Positions 25,690 to 40,615 of a DNA stretch of 64,000 nucleotides are shown in pieces. Location: assembly GCA_002867475.1 (NCBI GenBank), contig PKTL01000043.1:16192-80191 (forward strand). Reading direction: 5' to 3'. Source of the stretch: Candidatus Woesearchaeota archaeon (lineage in GTDB: Archaea; Nanobdellota; Nanobdellia; Woesearchaeales; BM511). The notes below the pieces were generated by a model. The model was not told the DNA's origin and did not search any database. It saw only the letters and a program-made list of their open reading frames with translations. Both the position numbers and the translations under genes were made by a program. Numbering within the stretch: position 1 is the first letter of the stretch; the number at the start of each line of letters is the position of its first letter.

Positions 25690-27117
25690 TTATCCTTTTA
25701 TTACACCTAACGGTTTGACTTTTGCTACAAGTTTTCCTATTCCTGCTTCGTGTGAAACTTTCACCACTTCGTCAATATCTTTGTATGCTTCTGGTGCTTC
25801 TTCAACTATTCCTTTTTTAGATGCTGACTTAATATGAATATTATGTGATTCTAGTTCCTTTACTACTTCGTCTGCTTGCATGCTTTTCATCGCTTGGAAC
25901 CTGCTCATCTTTCGCCCTGCTCCATGAGCTGTTGAACCGAATGATTCTTCCATTGCTTTTTCTGTTCCTACTAGTATATAGCTTGATGTTCCCATTGAAC
26001 CTGGCAATAGTATTGGTTGTCCTGTTGGTTTATAGTCTTCTGGGAGTTCAGGTCTGTTTGGTGCGAATGCTCTTGTTGCTCCTTTCCTATGGACTATAAG
26101 TTCCTTTTCTTCTCCGTTTATAGTATGCTTTTCTAGTTTTGCGATGTTATGTGCTACATCATAGACTGTCTTTAAAGTTGCTTCTTTTCCAAATACTTCT
26201 TCAAAACTTTTTCTTACATTGTGTGCTATGATATGTCTGTTTGCCCATGCAAAGTTTGCAGCACCAATCATTGCACTGTAATAATCCTGGCCGAGTTTTG
26301 AACTGAATGGTGCGTAGATAAGATCTTTTTCTGGAAGTTCTTCTATTATATTTGGATACTCGTCTTCCATCTTTCTTAAGTAGTCACTGCATACTTGGTG
26401 ACCTAAGCCTCTACTTCCGCAGTGTATCATTACAACGATCTGGTTCTTTTCTTTTATTCCGAAAACACTTGCTTTTTCTTTATCGTAAATTTCATCTACT
26501 ATCTGCACTTCTAAGAAATGGTTTCCTGCACCTAGTGTTCCTAGTTGCCTTCTTCCTCTTCCTTTGCATTTCATTGAAATCAGTTTTGGGTCGCACCCAG
26601 GCATTGATCCTTCTTCTTCAGAGTGTTTTAAGTCGTCTTCGTTTCCAAAGCCTTGTTCGACTGCCCATCTCGCACCGTTTTTTAGGACTGCGTCTACTTC
26701 GTCGTCTGACAGTTTCATCTCTGATTCGCTGCCTACGCCTGACGGTACATTTTTGAAAAGTGATTCTAGTAAAGGTTCTATTTTTGGTTCTACTTCTTCT
26801 TTTGTTAGATTTGTTGCTAGAAGTCTTACTCCACAATTTATGTCAAAACCGATTCCGCCTGGAGTTATAATTCCTTCTTCTTTGTCGAAAGCTGCCACTC
26901 CACCTATGGAGAAACCGTAGCCCTTATGTGAGTCGGACATCATGATACTTGCTTTCTGTATTCCAGGTAATTTACTTACATTTATTCCTTGAGCTAGCGC
27001 TCCATCCGCTTCTATAGCATCTATTAATTTATCTGACGCGAACACTTTTACAGGGACATTCATATCCTCTTCTTTTTCTACAGTATACATTGAATCAGTG
27101 GTTTTTTCTAGTTTCAT
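25690..27117 (-). CDS. rtcB: RNA-splicing ligase RtcB
   Basis: GSMGTSSYIL and STAHGAGRKMSR motifs; 475 aa. Confidence 0.9.
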   Translation of the reverse strand: MKLEKTTDSMYTVEKEEDMNVPVKVFASDKLIDAIEADGALAQGINVSKLPGIQKASIMMSDSHKGYGFSIGGVAAFDKEEGIITPGGIGFDINCGVRLLATNLTKEEVEPKIEPLLESLFKNVPSGVGSESEMKLSDDEVDAVLKNGARWAVEQGFGNEDDLKHSEEEGSMPGCDPKLISMKCKGRGRRQLGTLGAGNHFLEVQIVDEIYDKEKASVFGIKEKNQIVVMIHCGSRGLGHQVCSDYLRKMEDEYPNIIEELPEKDLIYAPFSSKLGQDYYSAMIGAANFAWANRHIIAHNVRKSFEEVFGKEATLKTVYDVAHNIAKLEKHTINGEEKELIVHRKGATRAFAPNRPELPEDYKPTGQPILLPGSMGTSSYILVGTEKAMEESFGSTAHGAGRKMSRFQAMKSMQADEVVKELESHNIHIKSASKKGIVEEAPEAYKDIDEVVKVSHEAGIGKLVAKVKPLGVIKG

Positions 27118-27165
27118 AGTTTTCTTGGATTTAATTTTTCTTTAAAAAGATTATGTATAATTAAT

Positions 27166-28034
27166 TTATTTTAGAATTTTCTTCTTTTTCATATCAAGAT
27201 TATTATTTTTAGACATTACTGTTCTTCCTATTCTTTTTTCTATACTTTTTCTTGTTTCATTTGCTACTTCTCCACCTTCTTTAGCAGATTCGTTACATTC
27301 ATCAAAACCTTGAGAATCATTTTCTATTGTTATATCAGTTGTAGCTTTTTCACCAACCATAGTTAGTATCAATTCCCAATCATTCACACATGAAGACTAT
27401 AAGTCTTCAGTGCACAGAAGAATACTAATTCTTCTTGTGTGTGATCTCTTAAGTTCTGCTTTTTTAATTTTTTAAAATCCTTATATTCTCCAACAGTTTT
27501 ACCAAATGTTGCTTTACTAATTTCATTTGTCAATATTGCGAATTCATTTTCGTTTTTTACATCTCTATTTTTCCATTCGTCGGTTAATTCTTGTCTTATT
27601 ACAATACCTCTTAATCTTTTATCTATCCACTCTTTTGGATATCCTTTTAATTCATAATATTCTTTGATTCTATCTTGACCCAATTCAGGATTTTCTATCT
27701 CTTGTATTCTTTCATAACCTGTTTTAGCTAACCATTGTTTGAAAGGTTCAGCTTTTTTTGAAGGAATCGATTGAATTATACGAAAAAGATTCTTTGTATT
27801 TGCACAATCAGTAAAATAAGATTTTCCATCTGAAGAAGATAATTTCAGTTGTACCCAAATTGGGGACAACTCAAGCACTTTAAATTCTCTATCTTTAACT
27901 TTTCCCCAATATTGTCTTGGCTTGGGACTTTCAGTTAAAACTTCAACAACATCAACTATTGAGAAATACCATTCATCATTGAACCAAATCCTTCTAATGT
28001 TCTTATCTTGGAAAACTATTATTTTATCATTCAT
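27166..28034 (-). pseudogene. DinD-like Bro-N (KilA-N superfamily) gene split into 216-aa and 73-aa pieces
   Basis: N-terminal Bro-N domain (IRRIWFNDEWYFSIVDVVEVL); C-terminal ILTNEISKATFG ... NLRDH, then a stop. The remainder (ELILTMVGEKATTD ... GGEVANETRK ... VMSKNN) continues in another frame with a 4-nt overlap. Hairpin gaagactATAagtcttc at the junction. Confidence 0.5.
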
Positions 28035-28076
28035 AGATTATTATAAACTCTTTTTATTTAAATACTCTATGTGGCT

Positions 28077-28086
28077 ATGTCCAGTG
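28077..28086. promoter_or_regulatory. Copy of the ATGTCCAGTG motif in the divergent intergenic region
   Basis: Seen directly in the sequence. Confidence 0.45.
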
Positions 28087-28230
28087 TTTAACATATAATT
28101 AACTCCTTAGTGGTAACAAAATCGAAAGATTTATATACTCATCCACATTAAACAATATATTAAATATGGCAAGTTTTATAAAAGAAAAACACTGTATTTA
28201 GTAAAAACTAATATTCACAAGGTGATAGAT

Positions 28231-29037
28231 ATGAAGAAAAAACTAGTTACTTTAGCAGCAATCACAGCTTTTGGTGCTACACCAGCTGTTGCTTTAGATC
28301 AAGAAGAAATCGACGCAATGTTTTCTGCTCCTAACGCTCCAAAACAAGAAGAAGTTATGGGAATAGCACAAAAAGGCGGACTTATAGACATCGTAACAAA
28401 AGATAATAAGATTCTAAGATTCAATGATGAATGGACAACTCTACAAGATGCAAATGGAGGAGATTATCACACTCTTGGTGCAACAGGAGTTACAAGAACA
28501 AAAAAGACCTCATTCTCAGATCCTGAAGATGTATTCACAGTAAGTGATTATGGACTTGACCAATCAAAAGTTGATGAAAACGGACAACTATCCCTTTTTG
28601 CTTCATACCTTATTGATGGACCTGCAAAGATTGATGGAATATCCGCAGCTACCAATCCTAGAAAAGATGGATATGATTTTTTAGTATTATCAGAAGGTAA
28701 CCTATACGAATCAAACATGGTTGATGGAGTACTAGTTGTTGACACAACACCAGTTGACAGTATTGACGCAGCAGTTGTTGGTTTTGACAACATGAACGGC
28801 GGAAAAAGAGCAACAGTCACAAACAATGATTACACACTGACTAAAGAAAAAGACGGCAGAGTTATCTTTGAAAGAAGCACAGACCTACAACCAGGAGAAA
28901 CAGAATATCCAATAATCATCGCACCAGGAGAAGCTTGCAGTCTTGACTTGATTGCAGCAGGAGAACAAGCATGCCAAGATGGATATGTTTGCAAAGCAAA
29001 TGATTATCCAATAAAATACAACTGCTTATTAGAATAA
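28231..29037 (+). CDS. Secreted protein with C-terminal 4-Cys module
   Basis: AGGTGA RBS; signal peptide MKKKLVTLAAITAFGATPAVA; C-terminus GEACSLDLIAAGEQACQDGYVCKANDYPIKYNCLLE. Confidence 0.6.
   Translation: MKKKLVTLAAITAFGATPAVALDQEEIDAMFSAPNAPKQEEVMGIAQKGGLIDIVTKDNKILRFNDEWTTLQDANGGDYHTLGATGVTRTKKTSFSDPEDVFTVSDYGLDQSKVDENGQLSLFASYLIDGPAKIDGISAATNPRKDGYDFLVLSEGNLYESNMVDGVLVVDTTPVDSIDAAVVGFDNMNGGKRATVTNNDYTLTKEKDGRVIFERSTDLQPGETEYPIIIAPGEACSLDLIAAGEQACQDGYVCKANDYPIKYNCLLE
28981..29037 (+). repeat. 57-nt exact direct repeat (copy 1) encoding GYVCKANDYPIKYNCLLE plus stop
   Basis: Identical to 29231..29287. Confidence 0.9.
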
Positions 29038-29068
29038 AAATATGAAACAATTTTGGAGGAAACACGAA

Positions 29069-29287
29069 ATGAAATTTTTTGCAATATTTATGTTAATACT
29101 TAGCTTTTTAGCTAGTTTTTTTGGACCAGTAGATTCACCAACAGGAGAGGTTATAGTTAATCCAGAACCTGCACCTATTGAAGCTGGAGAAATCTGTGAC
29201 CCAAATGACTCAAATCAAATTTGTGAAGAAGGATATGTTTGCAAAGCAAATGATTATCCAATAAAATACAACTGCTTATTAGAATAA
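29069..29287 (+). CDS. Small secreted cysteine-rich protein (~72 aa) sharing the C-terminal module
   Basis: GGAGG RBS 10 nt upstream of ATG 29069; signal/TM MKFFAIFMLILSFLASFFG; C-terminus EICDPNDSNQICEEGYVCKANDYPIKYNCLLE. Confidence 0.55.
   Translation: MKFFAIFMLILSFLASFFGPVDSPTGEVIVNPEPAPIEAGEICDPNDSNQICEEGYVCKANDYPIKYNCLLE
29231..29287 (+). repeat. 57-nt exact direct repeat (copy 2)
   Basis: Identical to 28981..29037. Confidence 0.9.
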
Positions 29288-29369
29288 TTACTTATCTAAT
29301 AAGTATTTTTTCTTTATTTTACTTATCATAATCGATATTTTTATATATTATTACTTATTTAATAAGTAT
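29288..29369 (+). promoter_or_regulatory. Three phased TTACTTAT-containing sites; two are full palindromes (TTACTTATCTAATAAGTAT, TTACTTATTTAATAAGTAT). Candidate operator
   Basis: Sites at 29288, 29319 and 29351, spaced 31-32 nt; the last ends 3 nt before the ATG of the HTH gene. Confidence 0.45.
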
Positions 29370-29371
29370 TT

Positions 29372-29668
29372 ATGACTGGTCAAGGAGATGATATTAGAGA
29401 TAAATTCAATTCTTTAGTTAGTAATCTCCAAAAATTAGGGTTTTCTTTTGATGAAATACTTTCCATGATGAGTTCTGATTTTGAATCTGATAAAACCCTT
29501 ATTCCCTTAGAAGTATTTCGAACCCGAGACCTTGGAGCGCTTGAAAGCTTAACTGTTTTTCTAAAAGAGAAAAAGGACATGAAATTCTCTGAAATAGGCA
29601 AAGCCTTGGAAAGAGATCAAAGAACTATCTGGACAACATACAATAAAGCAAAGAAGAAACTAGAATGA
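29372..29668 (+). CDS. Sigma-70 region 4-like / LuxR-type HTH DNA-binding protein
   Basis: IPLEVFRTRDLGALESLTVFLKEKKDMKFSEIGKALERDQRTIWTTYNKAKKKLE matches the sigma70_r4 pattern; ATGA overlap with the giant gene. Confidence 0.55.
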   Translation: MTGQGDDIRDKFNSLVSNLQKLGFSFDEILSMMSSDFESDKTLIPLEVFRTRDLGALESLTVFLKEKKDMKFSEIGKALERDQRTIWTTYNKAKKKLE

Positions 29669-32600
29669 GAACCAATAAAACCATAATCAAAATATTGATG
29701 ATTCTTCTAGTTAGTGTTATCTTTTCTCAAATAGGTTTGAGTTTTAATTTCAATTGCACTTCAGATAGTGTTCTAACAGAATTTAGTGGATCTGACACTG
29801 TGAATTGGATTATTGAAAATGATACTATATGTGAAAATGTATACATTGAACTTTCAAGAAATATTACAATAAGTACAAATGGAAGATTAGAATTTAGAAA
29901 TGTAACACTTGACATGAATGTTTTAGGAAATGATGGAAATATAGGAATAGAAGTTGAACCAAATAGCAATGGAATATTCATTTATGATTCAAGAATTCAA
30001 AGTATGACAGCTAATAATTATTTCTGGATTGTGAATCAAAGTTTTATAATGGATAGAACTAATGTAAGTAATTGTGGATATGCAATACCTAGCAATAACC
30101 CTGGAATAAATTTATTTTATGGAAATTCAAAAATTAATAATTCTAAAATAAATGAAGGTTTCATCAATTTATATATTAATTCAGAAAATAATACTATTGA
30201 GAATACACAAATATCAGATTCGAATTATTATCCAATCTTCTTTGCAACATCCAATAATAAAATAATAAATTCAAACATTACTAATGGAACAAGAGGTATT
30301 TATTTTGATTCTAATGTAAATAACATTACTATTAATAAAATAATTATAAAAGATATTTCTAGTTCCGCATATTATCTTGAATTCACTAATAATGACCAAA
30401 TATTAATTAATAATTCTATAATTAATATTACAAGTATAAATCATGGAATTTATGACTCGGCAAATACTTTAAAATTAACAATTATAAATTCGAAAATTGA
30501 TAATAATTTTGATAAAAAAAGTATCACAATAGATAACGAATTTTCAAATATTAAAATATATAATTCTACTATTGATAAAAATAAAATTACCATAACAGGA
30601 ACTCAAGCCAATATCACATTCAAGGAATATGTTAATTTTCATGTTAATGGATCTGATGGAGCTGATTATTTGAATGATGTTGTTGTGAAGTTATATGATA
30701 ATAGCACTAATTCATACGGACCAACAGCAAATTATACATTAACAACTGGAACACCCTATGATCCAGGTTACACTGCGATGCTTACAGTTATAGATATGAT
30801 AATGTATAATGGATATAACACCTCATACAGCCCATACAATGTTACATTCAACAAAACAGGTTATAAGTTCTATTGGAACAATAGTTATTTCTTCAACAAA
30901 TCAGAAACGCATTACGTAACCCTTGACCCAATAACACCTCTAACATGTGAGGGATTATTTTCTGATAATGGAAATGTTATAATCACTGAAGACTTAACTT
31001 GTGAAAACTTAACAATAATAGCACAAAACGTTACAGTCAACAACAGTGCAAGGTTGATATTGAAAAACACCACGCTAATAATAAATGAAACAGCCATAGG
31101 ACATCCATCAATAATCAATATAACAAATGAAGCAGCAGGTATTGAATTACAAAACAGTACGATAAAAGGTCTTAATGATAATGATTATGATTTTATATCT
31201 TATTCAAATACATTAATAAATCATAGTTTAATAAAAGATGTTGGCAGTTCAACAACTATAAATGGATTACATATATACACAAATAATGCGATTATCATAA
31301 ATTCTAGATTTGAAAATAATTATGAAGACCTAGTATTAAAAGGAGATAACTTTACATTAGAAAATCTTGAACTCATAAACTCATACAATAACGGAATAAG
31401 AATTGGAGCTGATTCATTTAATCCTTTAACAAATAGTAAATTCAAAAATATAAGTATAAATAGTTCAGGAAAAGGAATAATAATACAGGATAATTCAAAT
31501 AATCATTATTTTGAAAAATTATTTATAACAAATGATGAAATTGACACAGGAGAGGTATTAATATCCTTAAACAAAGCATATAATTTAACTTTTAATGATT
31601 CAATTTTTAACATATCACAATCTACTGGAAGCAGTGCATTTTCTATTGATTTTAATTCTGCTAATTTTACATTAATAAATTCAAAAATCTATAATCTTGG
31701 AGAAAGTGCAACCGAAATAAAACTCATTGGAAATTCATTTATTAATATAATAAACTCTTCTTTTGATAGATCAAAGATAGAATATGTTTCTTTCACAGGG
31801 AATATCTCTTTCTATGAATATATTAAATTTAAGATATATAATGACAGTGTCTATACAGAGGCGTTATTTGATGTTAACCTAACCTTGAAAGACAACATAT
31901 CCAAAAATGAAAAATATAATCTTACAACTGATGAAAGTGGTTACACAAACACCATTTTAGTTCTTGATGGAGTTGGAAACAGCTCATATGATGGAGTGCA
32001 TTATAATTATGCATACAGCCCTTATAATATAACCTTTGAAAAGGAAGGTTACATTACTAAAAACTTAACTTTCTACCTTAATGAATCAACAACTTTTGAA
32101 GCTAACATATCAATGATAGCTGAACCATCTTCAGATTACATTTTAGTGGAACTGATCAATCCTATAACTATAAGTGAGAACAAGACACCTACAGTTACGT
32201 TCAAGGTTAATGGGAGCATGACAGGATACTTTAATTGCTCATTAAGAACAAATATCACAGGTCATGATTATGAATATAATGAAAGTGTGGTAAATAATAC
32301 TCCTACAAGCCTAACCTTTGCTACTGACTTACCTACAGGATCCCATAAGTATTGGGTTAACTGCTCAAATAATGAGATAAATAATGTTTCAAATAACATA
32401 ACATTATTGATTGTTGAAGAGAACCCTTCAATAAACTTGTTAAGCCCAAAAAATAATAACGTAACAACAAATACTAGCCAAATATTCACTTTTAATTTCA
32501 CAGATACTTATTCAAGTACGGCAAACTGTTCGCTTATAATAAACGGATCCATATACAGGTATAACAGCACTGTTTTGAACAACACACCAACAGATATAAA

Positions 32601-35600
32601 CCAGGAATTAAGTATTGGAAACTATAACTGGACTATTAACTGTACAGACATATATGGTAATATTGGAAGCGATGATGGAAGAAACCTGACAATAGAAGCG
32701 TTAGATCAAACAGGACCAACACCGATAACCTATTCACCAACAACTGGCACAAGTAGAGAATATGATAAATACAGGCAAGATTATTTCAATGTTACATGGA
32801 CAGATATTAGTGGAATAGAAAATGTAAGAATCTATAATAATTTTTCAAATGGAATATGGAATAATTATGAAGTTTCTAACATCAGCAACTCATATTATTA
32901 TAATACCACTAATATCAAACCAGGAAGATATGCTTGGTATATGAATGCAAGTGATACAGAAGGAAACTCGAACTGGACAGGATACATAGATTATATAATA
33001 ACAAAAAGCACAAACGATCAATTGATATTAACAATAAATGGAACAGAATCAAGCACCCCATTTTTGCAAAGAAAAACTTCTCTTTGGATAAATGGTTCAA
33101 GCAATAACCAAGACATAGGATTGACACTTTTTGTAGATTATGAAAATTTGAGCTATGGAATAAATGTCAGCAACTTTTATTTTTTCAATGAATCAGGATT
33201 GAAGATTGTTAATTTAACAATGGATGCAAATGATAGATTTGAAATAACGAATAAAGTTCTTACAGTCCAAGTTAATGACACTATCCCTCCAGCAAAGATA
33301 AATAATCTTCAAGCAACCCACATAACTTATGATATGATAAACTGGACATGGACACTTCCATCAGGAGAGGATGATATCAATAAGGCTGAAGTTTGGATAG
33401 ATGGAGAGCTAGTTGAAAACATAACGAACCCTTATGGACAAACCTATTTCGATTACTCAACCACTCAAAACACACTTGTTAATATTAGTGTTAGACTAGT
33501 GGATGATTATAATAATACTGGCGAAGAATTTAATACGTCTAATAGGACATTAAGGATAAATTATGCTCCAACAACATACTTAGAAAAACCAGATAACAAC
33601 ACCCAGATAAATAATAGTTTGAGTGTTACTTTCAATTTCACAGCATATGATGAGCTTCCCATCTATTTAAATTGCTCATTAAAAGTTATGGATAATATAG
33701 ATAGTAATATAACAATCTTTAACTTATCAGCCTATAGCGGAACACCTAGAATCTATACAAATAGTTCAATATTTTCATATAATCATTCATACTCTTGGTC
33801 TGTGAACTGTACAGATGGTGAATATTATAATATCTCAGACACATATTATTTCAACATAGCAGACACTTTACCTCCTGCAAAGATAAATAATCTTACTAAC
33901 TTAACTGGAGACAGTTGGATATATATCACTTGGTACAATCCTTCTACTGATTTCAATCACACAGAAGTTTGGTTTAATGATTCATATTATGACACTTTTA
34001 ATGACACATATCAAACCTTAAACATTACAGGATTGGATGACAATACAATTTATAATTTTAACATCACAGCGTATGACATATATAATAATGGTAACACAAC
34101 ATTGTTTAATATAACTACTGAAGTTGGGGATTATTCTGCCCCCTATATCAACTATCCTCAAATGCCTGAAAGTGGAACAATAACAAATAATGAAAGCGTG
34201 ATTTTCAATATCACTGCAAGTGATGATTCAGGAGGAACAATATCCTGTAATCTTACAATATATAATTCATCATCAACCATGATTGAATCCCAAACATTGA
34301 ACATATTAAGCGGCACATATGGATCAACAACTGTAAATCTTCCTGATGGAGAATATCATTGGAATTTTACCTGTGTTGATTATGATAGCAATCAAGCAAA
34401 TAGCACAACCTACCTATTGACTGTTGATACAACTCCACCATTTTATAGCGACCTATGGAATAATACTGATGGAGGATCAACATTTAATGAATCATATGAT
34501 TATCTTTTCAAGATCAGATGGAATGATACGATTACAGAAATTACAAATGTTTGGTTCGAAAACAACTTAACAAATAATCCTCTAGTAAATAGCACACCTT
34601 CACAAAATGGAAACTTATACACATATTCACCATCTACACCTCTTAAGCCAGGAACATATGCATATAAATGGTATGCAAGAGACAATGCAAATAATTTCAA
34701 TAATACAGAACTATTCACATTCACAATCAATAAAGCTGAACCAGCCTTAATGCTAAAATTAGATGGATCAGAACAGAACATCACTTATCTTGAAAGAAAG
34801 GATAACGTGACAGTTTATGCAATGATCACTAAGCCTAGCACAGAAACAATAACTGTGACATTACAGAACAGCTCAGGAACTTTTAGCATAGATCAATATA
34901 CAACCTTGCAATTTAATGAAGTAGGAATCTCAAACATCACTGCATCTTTTGAAGGAAACGAAAATTACACATCAAAAAACATAACGTATTATGTGAATGT
35001 TTCTGATAATGTAGGGCCTGAAGATGTGGTTATAGATCAAACAGTTATTACTACTTCTTATTTTTTCATACAATGGAATGATTCAACATCTGATGATTTC
35101 AATCATACAGAAGTATTGATAGATAATATTAATTATGACCATGGAGCTGATACTTTTATTAACCTTAATACTCCATCAGAGACAGAATATGAAGTGCTTA
35201 TAAGACATTTTGATATATATGGAAATAATGGTTCATGGACAAATATCACAATAACTACATTATCAAACATTCCAAGTATAGAATTATTATATCCAACAGA
35301 TTATTTGCTCATAAGCAACATGAAATCTGTTAATCTAACATTCAATGTCACAGATGAATCAGATTATGTTAATTGCACAGCTTATATTTATGGAAGAACT
35401 AATACATCCTTCTCAAAAACATATAACAATCTCTACACACAGGTTGGAACCCCTTATACTTTCAATACAGGAGAAATATTAGAATATAACAATACCTATA
35501 ATTGGTCAGTAAATTGTAGCGATCCTTACAATTACAGTGTTTCAAACACCCAAGCTTTTGGTATTATAGATACAAATCCTCCAATAATATCAAACATCAA

Positions 35601-38600
35601 CATCTATAACATAACAGATTCCAGCGCGATAATCAATTGGACAACAAACGAACCTTCAAACTATAGCATTGAACTAAAAGACATTCCAAGAATAGACTTT
35701 TCAACACTTGATACAACTCATGCTAGACTGATAGAAGGATTATCACCTTCAACATATTATGATATCAACATAACAGCATGTGACCTATATAATAATTGCA
35801 TAAAAGATGATTCAAAAAATCTGACAACAACCAATTTCGTATATGATATTTCAGTATCTTTGATCAACCCAATAGCTGATGCTTGGATACCCTATAACAA
35901 CAACATAACTTTTAATTTTTCAGTGAATGGAAATGTTGAGATAATGAGCTGTAACCTATCTATTGATGATAACAGAAGCGAATACTTCAACAAGATAAAT
36001 ACAACAATAGAAAATTATAGTACAACCTTCTACAATCTAGAATTTAAATACCATAATTGGAGCGTTACCTGCAATCATTCTGATAATGTATGGAGCGATA
36101 TTAGATATTTCAACCTAACAAACGATTACGATAACGACACTTATAATATTGGAACAGGAACAAATGAAGACTGTGATGATACAAACCCAAATATACACCC
36201 AGGAGTTGCAGATAACACAGATGATAATATAGATAACGATTGTGATGGAGACATTGATGAAGATTATAGTCCACCAAGTTCTAGTGGAGGAGGAAGCGTA
36301 AGTTTGCCTCCTGAAGAAGAAATTATTGAAGAAGAACCAAAAAATGAAACCGTTGAAGAAATAATAAATGAAACAATTGAGATAACTGAAGAGATTCCAG
36401 GAATAATAAATGAGACAAATGAGACTTCTGTTTGGGATTTCATAAATGAAAGCATAAATTTGTTCAATGAAACAGATATACCTGAAGAGATAAATGAAAC
36501 TGTTGAAGAAATCAAAAATGAAACAATTGAAGAAATCATAAATGAAACAATAGTAATAGAAAATGATGATAACTCAACAGATACTGATGATGAGTTGGTT
36601 GAGAAAAATGAATCGATATTTGAACTTCCTTCAAAACTTGATCTTGAAACTCCAAAAAAGGAAGCTGAAACACCTGATGAGAAAAAGGAGAAATCCACTA
36701 GTTCAGGAATAACTGGAATAACTGATAGGATAGGTGTAAAAAAGGAATATTACCATAAAGAAAATAATACTGTCATAAATTTCACGATAAAAAATAAAGG
36801 TATAGTGCCTTACAAAAAACTTGGCATTTTCATAAATATACCAAAATTCATAGCTGAAAGCACTGATAAGATGATAGGTAATTTCTATATAATCAGAAAA
36901 GATCCACAGATAGCTTATGTTTTCACAAATTTTAGCGGAAAAACATCAAAGACTATAGAGTTTCAAATAAAAGACAGACTTCTTAGTGATGAAGAGATTG
37001 AAAAGATCACATACTATACTAATTCAGAGATATCAAAGGAATATGTAGATTCCTTGAAAAAGAAAGCAAACGAGACGTACGATGCTATTAAGATTAAAAA
37101 AGAGATAATCCAATATGATGATAAGACAGAGTTCACAATAGAGCTTGAACCTATAAACGAGACAGAGAACGTCACATTATATTTGGATATTCCTAAATGC
37201 TTAGCTGAAAAGATCGAAGAGATAGAATTCGAACTAGAAGATTATGAGATCCTTGATGATGACCCTTTAATAGCATTTAATTTTGCAACCCTAACTGACA
37301 CTAAAACCTTGAATTTTGAAGTGTTAAAAGCAATCGACCCAGATTGCTGGGAGCTAGTAAAAACCACACCGATCGCTGAAAAGATAAAAGATAAGATAAT
37401 TGTAAAAGATGAGAAAAGCATGTTCTTCTCTATTGGCATCCTTCTTTTTGTACTCTTATCTACACTATCATTCAACTATTTGCAAATGCAAAGCAAGAAA
37501 AAGCATGGTAAAGGAATATTAGAAAAACTTGAATTTGGAATGGTCGAAATAATCTTAATACTAATAATAACTCTTAACATAATGGATTTCTTCAAGCTTC
37601 TAAATCCGGATCTTGATTTTGCAAAAAAGATTCTTTCATGGTCTCTTCTTGGAATACTTCTATATGAAGCAAGGCTTGAAAAAATATTTTATGGCACTGA
37701 AAGAAGATTTGAAACCTTACTTTTAATTATCGCTAATTTCTTCATGTTCTCAAGAGTGTTTGTTGATGTAGTCTTTGTATTATATAATGAGATTGTTGAG
37801 AAAAGGCTTGATTCATATGTTATTCACCTATATCAATTCGTGATTGACTTTGAACTTTCCCACCCTGGATTAATTGTAAGCATCGGAAGCATCATAGGAT
37901 TTAGTATGTTAATAATCCTTTCCTTCCTTGATGTTTTCAAAAATGTGAAGAAACCGAGCCTGCTTGAAGTACTGCATGTTGATGGAAAACCGAAAGGAAT
38001 AGGACAAGGTATCAAGAGATTCCTTATAAGTATGATGCTTTACTTGACATTTTTCATAGTGTTCTTCAATTTCTTCATGGAATGGCTTGCTATAAGTGTT
38101 GATGCTGCATTGATGGTTGTTGCAATAGTAGTATATGGAATAAGGTTTATAGTTAAGCAATATCATCATTACCATGAGGATCATATAATAAACAAGATAG
38201 GTAATATAGGTGAAGAATTTTATGAACAGTTCATAAATCTTTTCAAGTACAAGCACACAGTTTTCTTTGGCCTTGCTGGAATACTTGTACTTCACTTAAT
38301 AGTTGATATTGGAAATTTCATAATGCCTTTCATATTCAATTTTGAAGACATGATGTATTTCATACAAAGCGGAGTACCACACTTAAGCCTTCTTCATATA
38401 CTGATGAATCTTTATAGCCAAGATATATTAGCAAACATTGTCATAACCCTAAATTATTTGCTAAATATAAGTTTCATAATAATGATTTTGATATTCCCAG
38501 CATACATCTGGTATGACACATATAAGAATCATATAATAAATTTTAGAAGGTGGATCGTCGCATTTTTTTACATCGCAGTATCTAACTATCTAATCTCCCC

Positions 38601-39204
38601 TCTAGTGAAACTATCAAGCATAAGCAATGCTGACATATTAGGTGTTGATCTAATATTCAAGTCAAGCGTTACAGGCGATCCTTTGATGACACTACTAATA
38701 AGCATAGGTGTTGGAATAGTTGCATTTATCCTATCTTATAATCTTATATTGAAAACAGTGATAAAACTCATTGGATTTATTCCCGTATTAATATTTATAA
38801 TGATATATGTCACTTATTATGTGAATAGTTGGATAAGCAATCTTTTCCCACAGATTGTTGCTGCTGTTGCTAGTGCTACTTTGATCAATCTTTTCCTAGG
38901 AATACTTATGAGCTTCTTCATGACTGCGATAGTCATATTCTACATAGGTTCATTCATATATTTCATAAAACTCATATACACTCAATGGTTCGTGAAAAAA
39001 TATGCTTTTGCACACCTTGCAAAAAAATACAAGGATGTTATAAAAGAGCACTGCAAGACAGATCAAGATAAGCAAGTGATCTATAAAGCGATAAAATACA
39101 TTGAGTATATGAGGAAAAGAGAAGTGTCTGACCTTGAGATTGAAGAAACTTTAGCAAATAAAGGTATGAAAGAAGAAGTGATAAAGGACATCATATACCT
39201 ATAA
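29665..39204 (+). CDS. Giant (3179 aa) membrane-anchored surface protein: signal peptide, parallel beta-helix (PbH1) repeats, FN3-like domains, Cys-rich D/C motif, acidic NET repeats, C-terminal polytopic membrane domain
   Basis: Uninterrupted 9.5 kb ORF. N-terminus MRTNKTIIKILMILLVSVIFSQIGLSF. NxxIxNN-type beta-helix repeats (NSKINNSKINEGFINLYINSENNTIENTQISDS ... NGIRIGADS ... GKGIIIQDNSNN). Numerous N-x-S/T sequons. FN3-like PPAKINNL ... WTWTLP segments. DCDDTNPNIHPGVADNTDDNIDNDCDGDIDED at nt 36169-36267. EEIINETIE repeats. About 12 or more TM helices from nt ~37420. Confidence 0.85.
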   Translation: MRTNKTIIKILMILLVSVIFSQIGLSFNFNCTSDSVLTEFSGSDTVNWIIENDTICENVYIELSRNITISTNGRLEFRNVTLDMNVLGNDGNIGIEVEPNSNGIFIYDSRIQSMTANNYFWIVNQSFIMDRTNVSNCGYAIPSNNPGINLFYGNSKINNSKINEGFINLYINSENNTIENTQISDSNYYPIFFATSNNKIINSNITNGTRGIYFDSNVNNITINKIIIKDISSSAYYLEFTNNDQILINNSIINITSINHGIYDSANTLKLTIINSKIDNNFDKKSITIDNEFSNIKIYNSTIDKNKITITGTQANITFKEYVNFHVNGSDGADYLNDVVVKLYDNSTNSYGPTANYTLTTGTPYDPGYTAMLTVIDMIMYNGYNTSYSPYNVTFNKTGYKFYWNNSYFFNKSETHYVTLDPITPLTCEGLFSDNGNVIITEDLTCENLTIIAQNVTVNNSARLILKNTTLIINETAIGHPSIINITNEAAGIELQNSTIKGLNDNDYDFISYSNTLINHSLIKDVGSSTTINGLHIYTNNAIIINSRFENNYEDLVLKGDNFTLENLELINSYNNGIRIGADSFNPLTNSKFKNISINSSGKGIIIQDNSNNHYFEKLFITNDEIDTGEVLISLNKAYNLTFNDSIFNISQSTGSSAFSIDFNSANFTLINSKIYNLGESATEIKLIGNSFINIINSSFDRSKIEYVSFTGNISFYEYIKFKIYNDSVYTEALFDVNLTLKDNISKNEKYNLTTDESGYTNTILVLDGVGNSSYDGVHYNYAYSPYNITFEKEGYITKNLTFYLNESTTFEANISMIAEPSSDYILVELINPITISENKTPTVTFKVNGSMTGYFNCSLRTNITGHDYEYNESVVNNTPTSLTFATDLPTGSHKYWVNCSNNEINNVSNNITLLIVEENPSINLLSPKNNNVTTNTSQIFTFNFTDTYSSTANCSLIINGSIYRYNSTVLNNTPTDINQELSIGNYNWTINCTDIYGNIGSDDGRNLTIEALDQTGPTPITYSPTTGTSREYDKYRQDYFNVTWTDISGIENVRIYNNFSNGIWNNYEVSNISNSYYYNTTNIKPGRYAWYMNASDTEGNSNWTGYIDYIITKSTNDQLILTINGTESSTPFLQRKTSLWINGSSNNQDIGLTLFVDYENLSYGINVSNFYFFNESGLKIVNLTMDANDRFEITNKVLTVQVNDTIPPAKINNLQATHITYDMINWTWTLPSGEDDINKAEVWIDGELVENITNPYGQTYFDYSTTQNTLVNISVRLVDDYNNTGEEFNTSNRTLRINYAPTTYLEKPDNNTQINNSLSVTFNFTAYDELPIYLNCSLKVMDNIDSNITIFNLSAYSGTPRIYTNSSIFSYNHSYSWSVNCTDGEYYNISDTYYFNIADTLPPAKINNLTNLTGDSWIYITWYNPSTDFNHTEVWFNDSYYDTFNDTYQTLNITGLDDNTIYNFNITAYDIYNNGNTTLFNITTEVGDYSAPYINYPQMPESGTITNNESVIFNITASDDSGGTISCNLTIYNSSSTMIESQTLNILSGTYGSTTVNLPDGEYHWNFTCVDYDSNQANSTTYLLTVDTTPPFYSDLWNNTDGGSTFNESYDYLFKIRWNDTITEITNVWFENNLTNNPLVNSTPSQNGNLYTYSPSTPLKPGTYAYKWYARDNANNFNNTELFTFTINKAEPALMLKLDGSEQNITYLERKDNVTVYAMITKPSTETITVTLQNSSGTFSIDQYTTLQFNEVGISNITASFEGNENYTSKNITYYVNVSDNVGPEDVVIDQTVITTSYFFIQWNDSTSDDFNHTEVLIDNINYDHGADTFINLNTPSETEYEVLIRHFDIYGNNGSWTNITITTLSNIPSIELLYPTDYLLISNMKSVNLTFNVTDESDYVNCTAYIYGRTNTSFSKTYNNLYTQVGTPYTFNTGEILEYNNTYNWSVNCSDPYNYSVSNTQAFGIIDTNPPIISNINIYNITDSSAIINWTTNEPSNYSIELKDIPRIDFSTLDTTHARLIEGLSPSTYYDINITACDLYNNCIKDDSKNLTTTNFVYDISVSLINPIADAWIPYNNNITFNFSVNGNVEIMSCNLSIDDNRSEYFNKINTTIENYSTTFYNLEFKYHNWSVTCNHSDNVWSDIRYFNLTNDYDNDTYNIGTGTNEDCDDTNPNIHPGVADNTDDNIDNDCDGDIDEDYSPPSSSGGGSVSLPPEEEIIEEEPKNETVEEIINETIEITEEIPGIINETNETSVWDFINESINLFNETDIPEEINETVEEIKNETIEEIINETIVIENDDNSTDTDDELVEKNESIFELPSKLDLETPKKEAETPDEKKEKSTSSGITGITDRIGVKKEYYHKENNTVINFTIKNKGIVPYKKLGIFINIPKFIAESTDKMIGNFYIIRKDPQIAYVFTNFSGKTSKTIEFQIKDRLLSDEEIEKITYYTNSEISKEYVDSLKKKANETYDAIKIKKEIIQYDDKTEFTIELEPINETENVTLYLDIPKCLAEKIEEIEFELEDYEILDDDPLIAFNFATLTDTKTLNFEVLKAIDPDCWELVKTTPIAEKIKDKIIVKDEKSMFFSIGILLFVLLSTLSFNYLQMQSKKKHGKGILEKLEFGMVEIILILIITLNIMDFFKLLNPDLDFAKKILSWSLLGILLYEARLEKIFYGTERRFETLLLIIANFFMFSRVFVDVVFVLYNEIVEKRLDSYVIHLYQFVIDFELSHPGLIVSIGSIIGFSMLIILSFLDVFKNVKKPSLLEVLHVDGKPKGIGQGIKRFLISMMLYLTFFIVFFNFFMEWLAISVDAALMVVAIVVYGIRFIVKQYHHYHEDHIINKIGNIGEEFYEQFINLFKYKHTVFFGLAGILVLHLIVDIGNFIMPFIFNFEDMMYFIQSGVPHLSLLHILMNLYSQDILANIVITLNYLLNISFIIMILIFPAYIWYDTYKNHIINFRRWIVAFFYIAVSNYLISPLVKLSSISNADILGVDLIFKSSVTGDPLMTLLISIGVGIVAFILSYNLILKTVIKLIGFIPVLIFIMIYVTYYVNSWISNLFPQIVAAVASATLINLFLGILMSFFMTAIVIFYIGSFIYFIKLIYTQWFVKKYAFAHLAKKYKDVIKEHCKTDQDKQVIYKAIKYIEYMRKREVSDLEIEETLANKGMKEEVIKDIIYL

Positions 39205-40101
39205 ATCTAATTTATTTAACATATTGAAAGTTTCTTTATCAAATCTAGAAAAAGCAAACCACTTCTTTCCAAGATCTTTAAGTGATGCTCCAAAATGAAA
39301 CACTTCTTTTTCATCTATGATTAAAAACCTATCATGTGAATCTTTAAATTCCTTAATTTCTATATTTGGATTTTGAGAATTATATTTTTTTAGGTCAAGA
39401 ATTAATTTCTTTGTTAAATTTTTTGTTAAAATAGTTGCTTTAACATTTTTATCTCTTTTACTTAAAATAGTTAAAACAGAATCATCAATGTAATTATCTA
39501 TTAATATTATTGATTTATTAGCACTTCTAATAATATCAGATACTAATTTATATGCATCAAAAATTTCTCCATCATAAAATATTCATTTATTTAAATTAAT
39601 ATTATTATTTTCTAATTTACTAAATATTTCCTTAAAATTTTTATCATGAATCAATTGCTTTGATTCAATATGATCTAATCTATTATTAATATTAAAATTA
39701 TTTGATATGATTTTTCTTAATTCTACAAAAGTATCTATTATTTGAAGACTTACAGTTATTGCAACTTTACTTCTTAAAACAGAAGAAAGCATAGCAACAC
39801 CTTGTTCTGTAAAAACATAAGGAAGAGAACCACCCAACTGCTGGTTAGAAGGTATCGCAAAATGCGATACCTTTTCTTTTGTGATCACAGATTGTGACCT
39901 TAAATTTTCAATTTCTTCTAAAGTTAATTGAAACATAAATCTTGAAGGAAACCTTTCAATATTTCTTTTTACTTGTTCTCTAATACGGATGGGTTTTACT
40001 TGATATAATTCTGCTAAATCCTTATCAAACATTACTTGTTTTCCCCTTATTTTATAAATTTTATTTTTTATATTATTCTCTAATATGATTTCATTAATCA
40101 T
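39199..40101 (-). pseudogene. ORF6N-domain (KilA-N superfamily) gene interrupted by an in-frame TGA at 39583-39585
   Basis: N-terminal part KIRGKQVMFDKDLAELYQVKPIRIREQVKRNIERFPSRFMFQLT ... GGSLPYVFTEQGVAMLSSVLRS is an ORF6N domain. After the TGA the same frame stays open for 127 codons with no start codon (IFYDGEIFDAYKL ... HDRFLIIDEKEVFHFGASLKDLGKKWFAFS), resembling the usual C-terminal region of this family. Confidence 0.55.
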
Positions 40102-40143
40102 ATGATTTTACAAGAAACCTTGTTTAAAAGCCTCACTTGAGAA

Positions 40144-40170
40144 TGTCCACTGATATTTTTTGTCCAGTGG
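40144..40170. promoter_or_regulatory. Two copies of the TGTCCA(C/G)TG motif forming an 8-bp inverted repeat (GTCCACTG ... CAGTGGAC)
   Basis: GAATGTCCACTGATATTTTTTGTCCAGTGGAC; a further partial copy TCCAGTG at 40202-40208. Confidence 0.5.
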
Positions 40171-40216
40171 ACGTCTGAATTATTTCATAATTCATGAAAG
40201 TTCCAGTGTCTAGTGA

Positions 40217-40615
40217 CTATAAATCCATGACCATTATCACATGATCATCTGCATATTCGAAGTCATTATAAGTTATTGCTTTTATGTGCCCATGGGTTTC
40301 GTAGTTCTTGTATGAATCGCCAACTACTGTTGCTTTCACATTATTATCTTTTACTTCAATGCTTAAAACTTTATTCAATACGAAATCTTCAACGTCATGA
40401 TAATATAATAGTTCATCAAGAAAATCATATAGTAAGCCTCGTAGATTCTTTGCTTCAACTTCAATAGATATCTCTTTTACTGGTTTAACCTCTTTAGGAT
40501 TCACGATTATTCCAAACATTGCATATGCACAGTTCTCAAACTTCTCAGAGTCATTTCTTCCATATGCTTTGAACTTTGCGTCAGCAGTATGAGTCAAGTA
40601 TTCATATCTCATCAA
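40217..40615 (-). CDS. Archease (RtcB cofactor)
   Basis: YEYLTHTADAKFKAYG and HGHIKAITY motifs; 132 aa. Confidence 0.8.
   Translation of the reverse strand: MMRYEYLTHTADAKFKAYGRNDSEKFENCAYAMFGIIVNPKEVKPVKEISIEVEAKNLRGLLYDFLDELLYYHDVEDFVLNKVLSIEVKDNNVKATVVGDSYKNYETHGHIKAITYNDFEYADDHVIMVMDL

Follow-up and report, generated by a model that had tools for sequence, protein, structure and literature searches.

Why are archease and rtcB, whose operons are documented for tRNA splicing (Desai et al. 2014, PMC3973293), separated by 13,099 bp (27118–40216) in this Candidatus Woesearchaeota genome? In the window, by which we mean the whole 64,000-nt stretch analyzed here, both genes are present, intact and co-oriented on the minus strand, as in the known operon, but the window copy is split by 13.1 kb that include oppositely oriented genes. 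The initial annotation had attributed this arrangement to an integrated, now degraded mobile element with a cell-surface or attachment locus as its cargo, and all the features it described are present at or near the positions given. Our analysis indicates that the block is probably a real, lineage-specific insertion, a composite accessory island and not a prophage, which splits an ancestral, translationally coupled archease–rtcB operon. The features are collected in Table 1.

Table 1. Features of the split archease–rtcB locus (window positions).
Feature	Position	Strand	Evidence
rtcB	25690..27117	-	475 aa, intact; Pfam RtcB E 2e-171
Left junction, new rtcB upstream spacer	27118..27165	-	sequence reading
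DinD/Bro-N gene, PADLOC PDC-S13 homologue, disrupted	27166..28034	-	Pfam Bro-N E 1e-11
53-nt palindromic insert splitting DinD	27387..27439	-	RNA fold; ORF restoration
Divergent intergenic region, DinD promoter and start region of surface cassette	28035..28221	.	
Secreted protein, 268/271 aa	28222..29037	+	translation; signal peptide, C-terminal 4-Cys motif
Small secreted protein, 72/81 aa	29042..29287	+	same C-terminal Cys motif
98-aa HTH protein (HTH98)	29372..29668	+	sigma-70 region 4 / LuxR-type fold
Giant 3179-aa surface protein	29665..39204	+	signal anchor, sequons, TM helices
ORF6N gene, PADLOC PDC-S05 homologue, one nonsense codon	39199..40101	-	Pfam ORF6N E 6e-33
Right junction and ORF6N promoter	40102..40216	-	
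archease	40217..40612	-	131 aa, intact; Pfam Archease E 2e-31

Archease lies immediately upstream of rtcB in all five closest relatives examined (RtcB identities of 81% for L024, 73% for L185, 72% for L025, 70% for L187/L188 and 68% for L026), with a 4-bp ATGA overlap between the two genes in four of them. The window RtcB is itself 100% identical to an NCBI Woesearchaeota RtcB. The adjacency that the initial annotation presumed is therefore confirmed by these genomes and by the documented operons, and it is more than chance. The flanks of the relatives are syntenic with the window, with DUF2391 and radical SAM genes on one side and Sua5, ZPR1 and DUF2238 on the other; CDC48, NIF3 and GatD are also part of this synteny. 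Adjacency in five relatives together with syntenic flanks identifies the block as a lineage-specific insertion at an operon junction, and the empty site that had been proposed as a check on the insertion was thus found in each of them.

At the position of the left junction, the relatives carry archease coding sequence that overlaps the rtcB ATG. The window archease ends with ...GATTTATAG and rtcB starts with AACTATGAAA, so that the precise junction leaves both genes whole; archease has its own TAG stop, which replaces the overlap, and the translational coupling of rtcB to archease is lost. Archease probably starts at the ATG that lies one codon downstream of the TTG first proposed. Because the operon is split by 13.1 kb, rtcB must use its own promoter. 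A TATA-like TTTAAA (27141–27146) lies in the 48-nt spacer, 23 nt before the rtcB ATG, and is the putative promoter of a leaderless transcript, since the geometry is the same as that of the TTTAAA-N23-25-ATG promoters found in this analysis; rtcB would have been expressed from this element after the insertion.

The core of the block is a cassette that begins with two secreted cysteine-rich proteins, as initially described. Their common C-terminal 4-Cys motif corresponds to a 62-nt DNA repeat with 98% identity between copies (28976–29037 and 29226–29287), and the larger protein has no Pfam, NCBIfam or PHROG match. HTH98 follows and is translationally coupled to the giant gene, with a 4-nt overlap of its stop and the giant start. 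Profile searches gave E 0.007 for TIGR02937 and E 0.02, below threshold, for Sigma70_r4_2, and the best Foldseek matches of its AlphaFold (AF2) model (pLDDT 86.7) are sigma region 4 domains. The family comprises 79 proteins, many with PF08281, of which all named members are Woesearchaeota, and no relative was found in IMG/VR. Because the family is Woesearchaeota-specific, the bacterial sigma-r4-like fold, assigned correctly at the outset, is no evidence of bacterial origin. HTH98 may act as a local regulator of the cassette.

From N to C terminus, the giant protein consists of a signal anchor, a beta-helix-like and Ig/fn3-like ectodomain, a MopE/Ca-binding-like Cys-Asp motif, an acidic linker, 12–13 TM helices (about 37417–38946) and a cytoplasmic tail. 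The ectodomain contains 156 N-X-S/T sequons, and the protein is probably N-glycosylated. The surface protein and the cell-surface character of the cargo were thus correctly recognized. The TM domain belongs to a family of 633 clusters, with no Pfam family and no neighbour among PDB folds, and all taxon-named homologues of the giant protein are from Woesearchaeota or Nanoarchaeota. The architecture resembles that of the SPEARE proteins of Nanohaloarchaeota (PMC10266531): both have a very large, signal-bearing and membrane-anchored ectodomain with Ig/fibronectin-like repeats in a small-genome DPANN archaeon, and both are encoded at an organism-specific locus that is rearranged between relatives. 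By contrast with SPEARE, no VirB4/TraG ATPase or other enzymatic domain was detected in the window protein, its anchor is a fused 12–13-TM domain of an uncharacterised family, and the gene itself is coupled with a sigma-r4-type HTH gene upstream and with paired genes for secreted Cys-motif proteins. Architecture and analogy suggest a role in the cell surface or in host attachment.

The cassette is bracketed by two KilA-N superfamily genes, as anticipated, with DinD divergently upstream of it and ORF6N convergently downstream of the giant gene, whose end ORF6N overlaps by 6 nt. Each is inactivated once, by a recent lesion. The split gene reported at the opening of the block consists of a 216-aa ORF (27384–28034) and a 73-aa ORF (27166–27387). 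A simple frameshift is ruled out by the discrete 53-nt palindromic insert, which folds into two 8-bp hairpins above a 7-bp closing stem (RNA fold of -26.6 kcal/mol, z -3.4) with terminal inverted repeats CACA(A/T)GAAG. This insert is single-copy in the window and has no IMG/VR match. Its deletion regains a 271-aa ORF that aligns without gaps to nine intact homologues and matches PADLOC PDC-S13 over its full length (E 1e-112). In ORF6N, the ORF at 39583–40101 ends at the in-frame TGA noted earlier (39583–39585), and homology runs on to 39199. The TGA stands opposite a Ser in an intact homologue of 57% identity (TCA to TGA) and is an ordinary stop in 15 of the 51 window genes; read through it, the protein matches PDC-S05 over its full length (E 4e-114). 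The genes are not generic decayed antirepressors; they are full-length members of PDC-S13 and PDC-S05, two families of candidate single-gene defence systems in PADLOC. In E. coli, a PDC-S05 representative conferred protection against T7 and T5 (PMC12881386); this protein has a Virulence_RhuM domain and could fall under a different sub-model from the window ORF6N. Single-gene PDCs are reported to be enriched in DPANN genomes (PMC12988326). Both window copies differ from these systems in being inactivated, and in archaea an anti-virus role is only a candidate one.

The two flank genes have a promoter module in common, CACTGGACA-N13-TATA-N25-ATG. Upstream of DinD it is represented by a CACTGGACAT box (28077–28086) and a TATA element at about 28057–28062, and upstream of ORF6N by three CACTGGACA-type boxes (40144–40152, 40161–40169 and 40207–40215, the last abutting the archease stop codon) and a TATA element at about 40124–40129. 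The motif has four matches in the window, where 0.11 would be expected, and its distance to an ATG is constant in all of them. Besides both flank genes, the module drives a toxin–antitoxin operon and DinD homologues in other metagenomes (13 of 70 loci). The PDC-S13 and PDC-S05 families are promiscuous cellular accessory genes with their own conserved promoter.

A related genome, GCA_018221135.1, carries the empty archease–rtcB site on one contig (L025) and the block on another (L189), in the order nrdD-trx-nrdG, DinD(-), MNT-HEPN, sec75, sec272, HTH101, giant(+), marC. The order and orientation of the window are kept. Identities to the window are 69% for DinD (an intact 276-aa orthologue), 62% for the HTH protein, 48% for the C-terminal 826 aa of the giant protein and 32% for the larger secreted protein (with L189_272), and flanking housekeeping genes are 46–77% identical. 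L189 lacks ORF6N and has a TA pair inserted between DinD and the cassette. An empty site and an orthologous DinD-plus-cassette block at nrdDG/marC in one genome show that the block is nomadic within the clade; the mobility first proposed thus holds in an evolutionary sense. In L026, a cassette without DinD is located ~7 kb from archease–rtcB, and the TM domain is encoded by a convergent gene of its own. Both L189 and L026 encode a similar pair of secreted paralogues. A small upstream gene is also paired with a giant gene in L190, L191 and L027; it is an HTH98 homologue in the first two, and the 93-aa protein of L027 has no detectable similarity to HTH98. The 80 metagenome DinD loci examined include none with an adjoining cassette. 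The window genome and GCA_018221135.1 probably inherited the DinD-plus-cassette block from a common ancestor; it would then have relocated into the archease–rtcB junction, as one unit if the single relative L189 is a guide. ORF6N may be a separate addition.

Alternatively, ORF6N, DinD and the cassette could have arrived separately at a permissive junction, for example an ORF6N–DinD pair first and the cassette later between them. DinD is highly promiscuous, with homologues of 53–80% identity on contigs of GC 0.27–0.60, and has its own conserved promoter. In L189, it is bracketed by an exact 28-nt direct repeat with 998-nt spacing, which suggests that DinD can move alone. The two flank genes are adjacent in other elements (L028, L041, L043, L046, L236 and L239), and L028, which holds the closest IMG/VR DinD (70% identity), has ORF6N followed directly by DinD, in the order of the window. 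The composition of L189, lacking ORF6N and having gained a TA pair, also agrees with piecemeal change, as do small gene replacements nearby relative to L024 and L025 (ABC transporter plus EamA for Metallophos; HD plus flavodoxin for SOD or PBP). We nevertheless regard separate arrivals as unlikely. Relative to the cassette, DinD is placed and oriented alike in the window and in L189, and its divergence falls within the housekeeping range, which argues for joint inheritance of DinD and cassette as a block. Moreover, none of the five relatives shows an intermediate in which archease and rtcB are separated by ORF6N or DinD alone, and the window DinD and ORF6N have no flanking direct repeats.

It is quite improbable that the block is what remains of an integrated virus, provirus or integrative element, with the KilA-N genes as decayed antirepressor ends and the surface locus as cargo. 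Bro-N and ORF6N do match PHROG families, ORF6N those termed "anti-repressor", and homologues occur on IMG/VR contigs (190 for DinD, 93 for ORF6N); in L041, the two genes are direct neighbours and lie beside an integrase and a DnaB helicase. Inactivated flank genes and different locations in different genomes are likewise what a decaying element would display. However, no integrase, excisionase, capsid, terminase or replication gene was found among ORFs of >=70 aa in 27118–40216, and the search for a recombinase, att-like direct repeats at the borders, a target duplication or a tRNA target was negative. The compositional shift that had been expected is absent: GC, GC3 (0.233 inside, 0.227 outside) and synonymous codon usage (RSCU correlation of 0.75–0.92 for island parts and 0.67–0.90 for host genes) do not contrast block and host. 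Relatives of the cargo genes are found only in Woesearchaeota and not in IMG/VR, with taxon-named homologues of HTH98 and the giant protein confined to Woesearchaeota or Nanoarchaeota. Relatives of the flank genes occur in only 4–5 of 50,697 GenBank phage records, all unannotated gut fragments, and the window copies are full-length with a single lesion each, not eroded stubs. The insertion postulated at the outset therefore stands, whereas a degraded phage-like element is not supported.

An assembly artefact, in which a chimeric path through a repeated DinD gene would make the 13-kb distance and perhaps the linkage unreal, is very hard to credit, as the JGI contig crosses both junctions with an identical sequence and an 89-kb NCBI contig encodes the same RtcB and giant proteins. 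ENA contigs do end at 27466 and 27520, inside DinD, with a 55-nt (k-mer sized) overlap, and Logan contigs end at 27520 and, inside ORF6N, at 39695; a repeat or a variant in the population may underlie these breakpoints, and the real path from one to the other could exceed 13 kb. Yet ENA NODE_1233 extends from archease across ORF6N, the giant gene and the cassette as far as DinD, and NODE_1479 from rtcB across the 53-nt insert, likewise into DinD, so that each junction is present in two or more assemblies. Coverage is equal for the two ENA contigs (7.98x and 7.85x), and database records show no second copy of this exact DinD product. Even if the DinD join is wrong, the operon remains split, with ORF6N downstream of archease and the DinD tail upstream of rtcB. 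The JGI, ENA and Logan assemblies agree to >=99.98% over the regions covered; the four assemblies compared may come from one sample.

The description of the block as an inserted accessory island is thus supported. It resembles classical genomic islands and proviruses in being discrete, absent from this site in relatives, located elsewhere in another genome and equipped with accessory surface and defence-type genes, and differs from them (integrase plus att plus tRNA) in lacking an integrase, direct repeats, a tRNA and a GC, GC3 or codon contrast. The favoured route of insertion would be recombination without an integrase of the element's own. The locus represents a clean, fairly ordinary case of genome plasticity in Woesearchaeota (DPANN), in a tiny archaeon of the symbiotic type.

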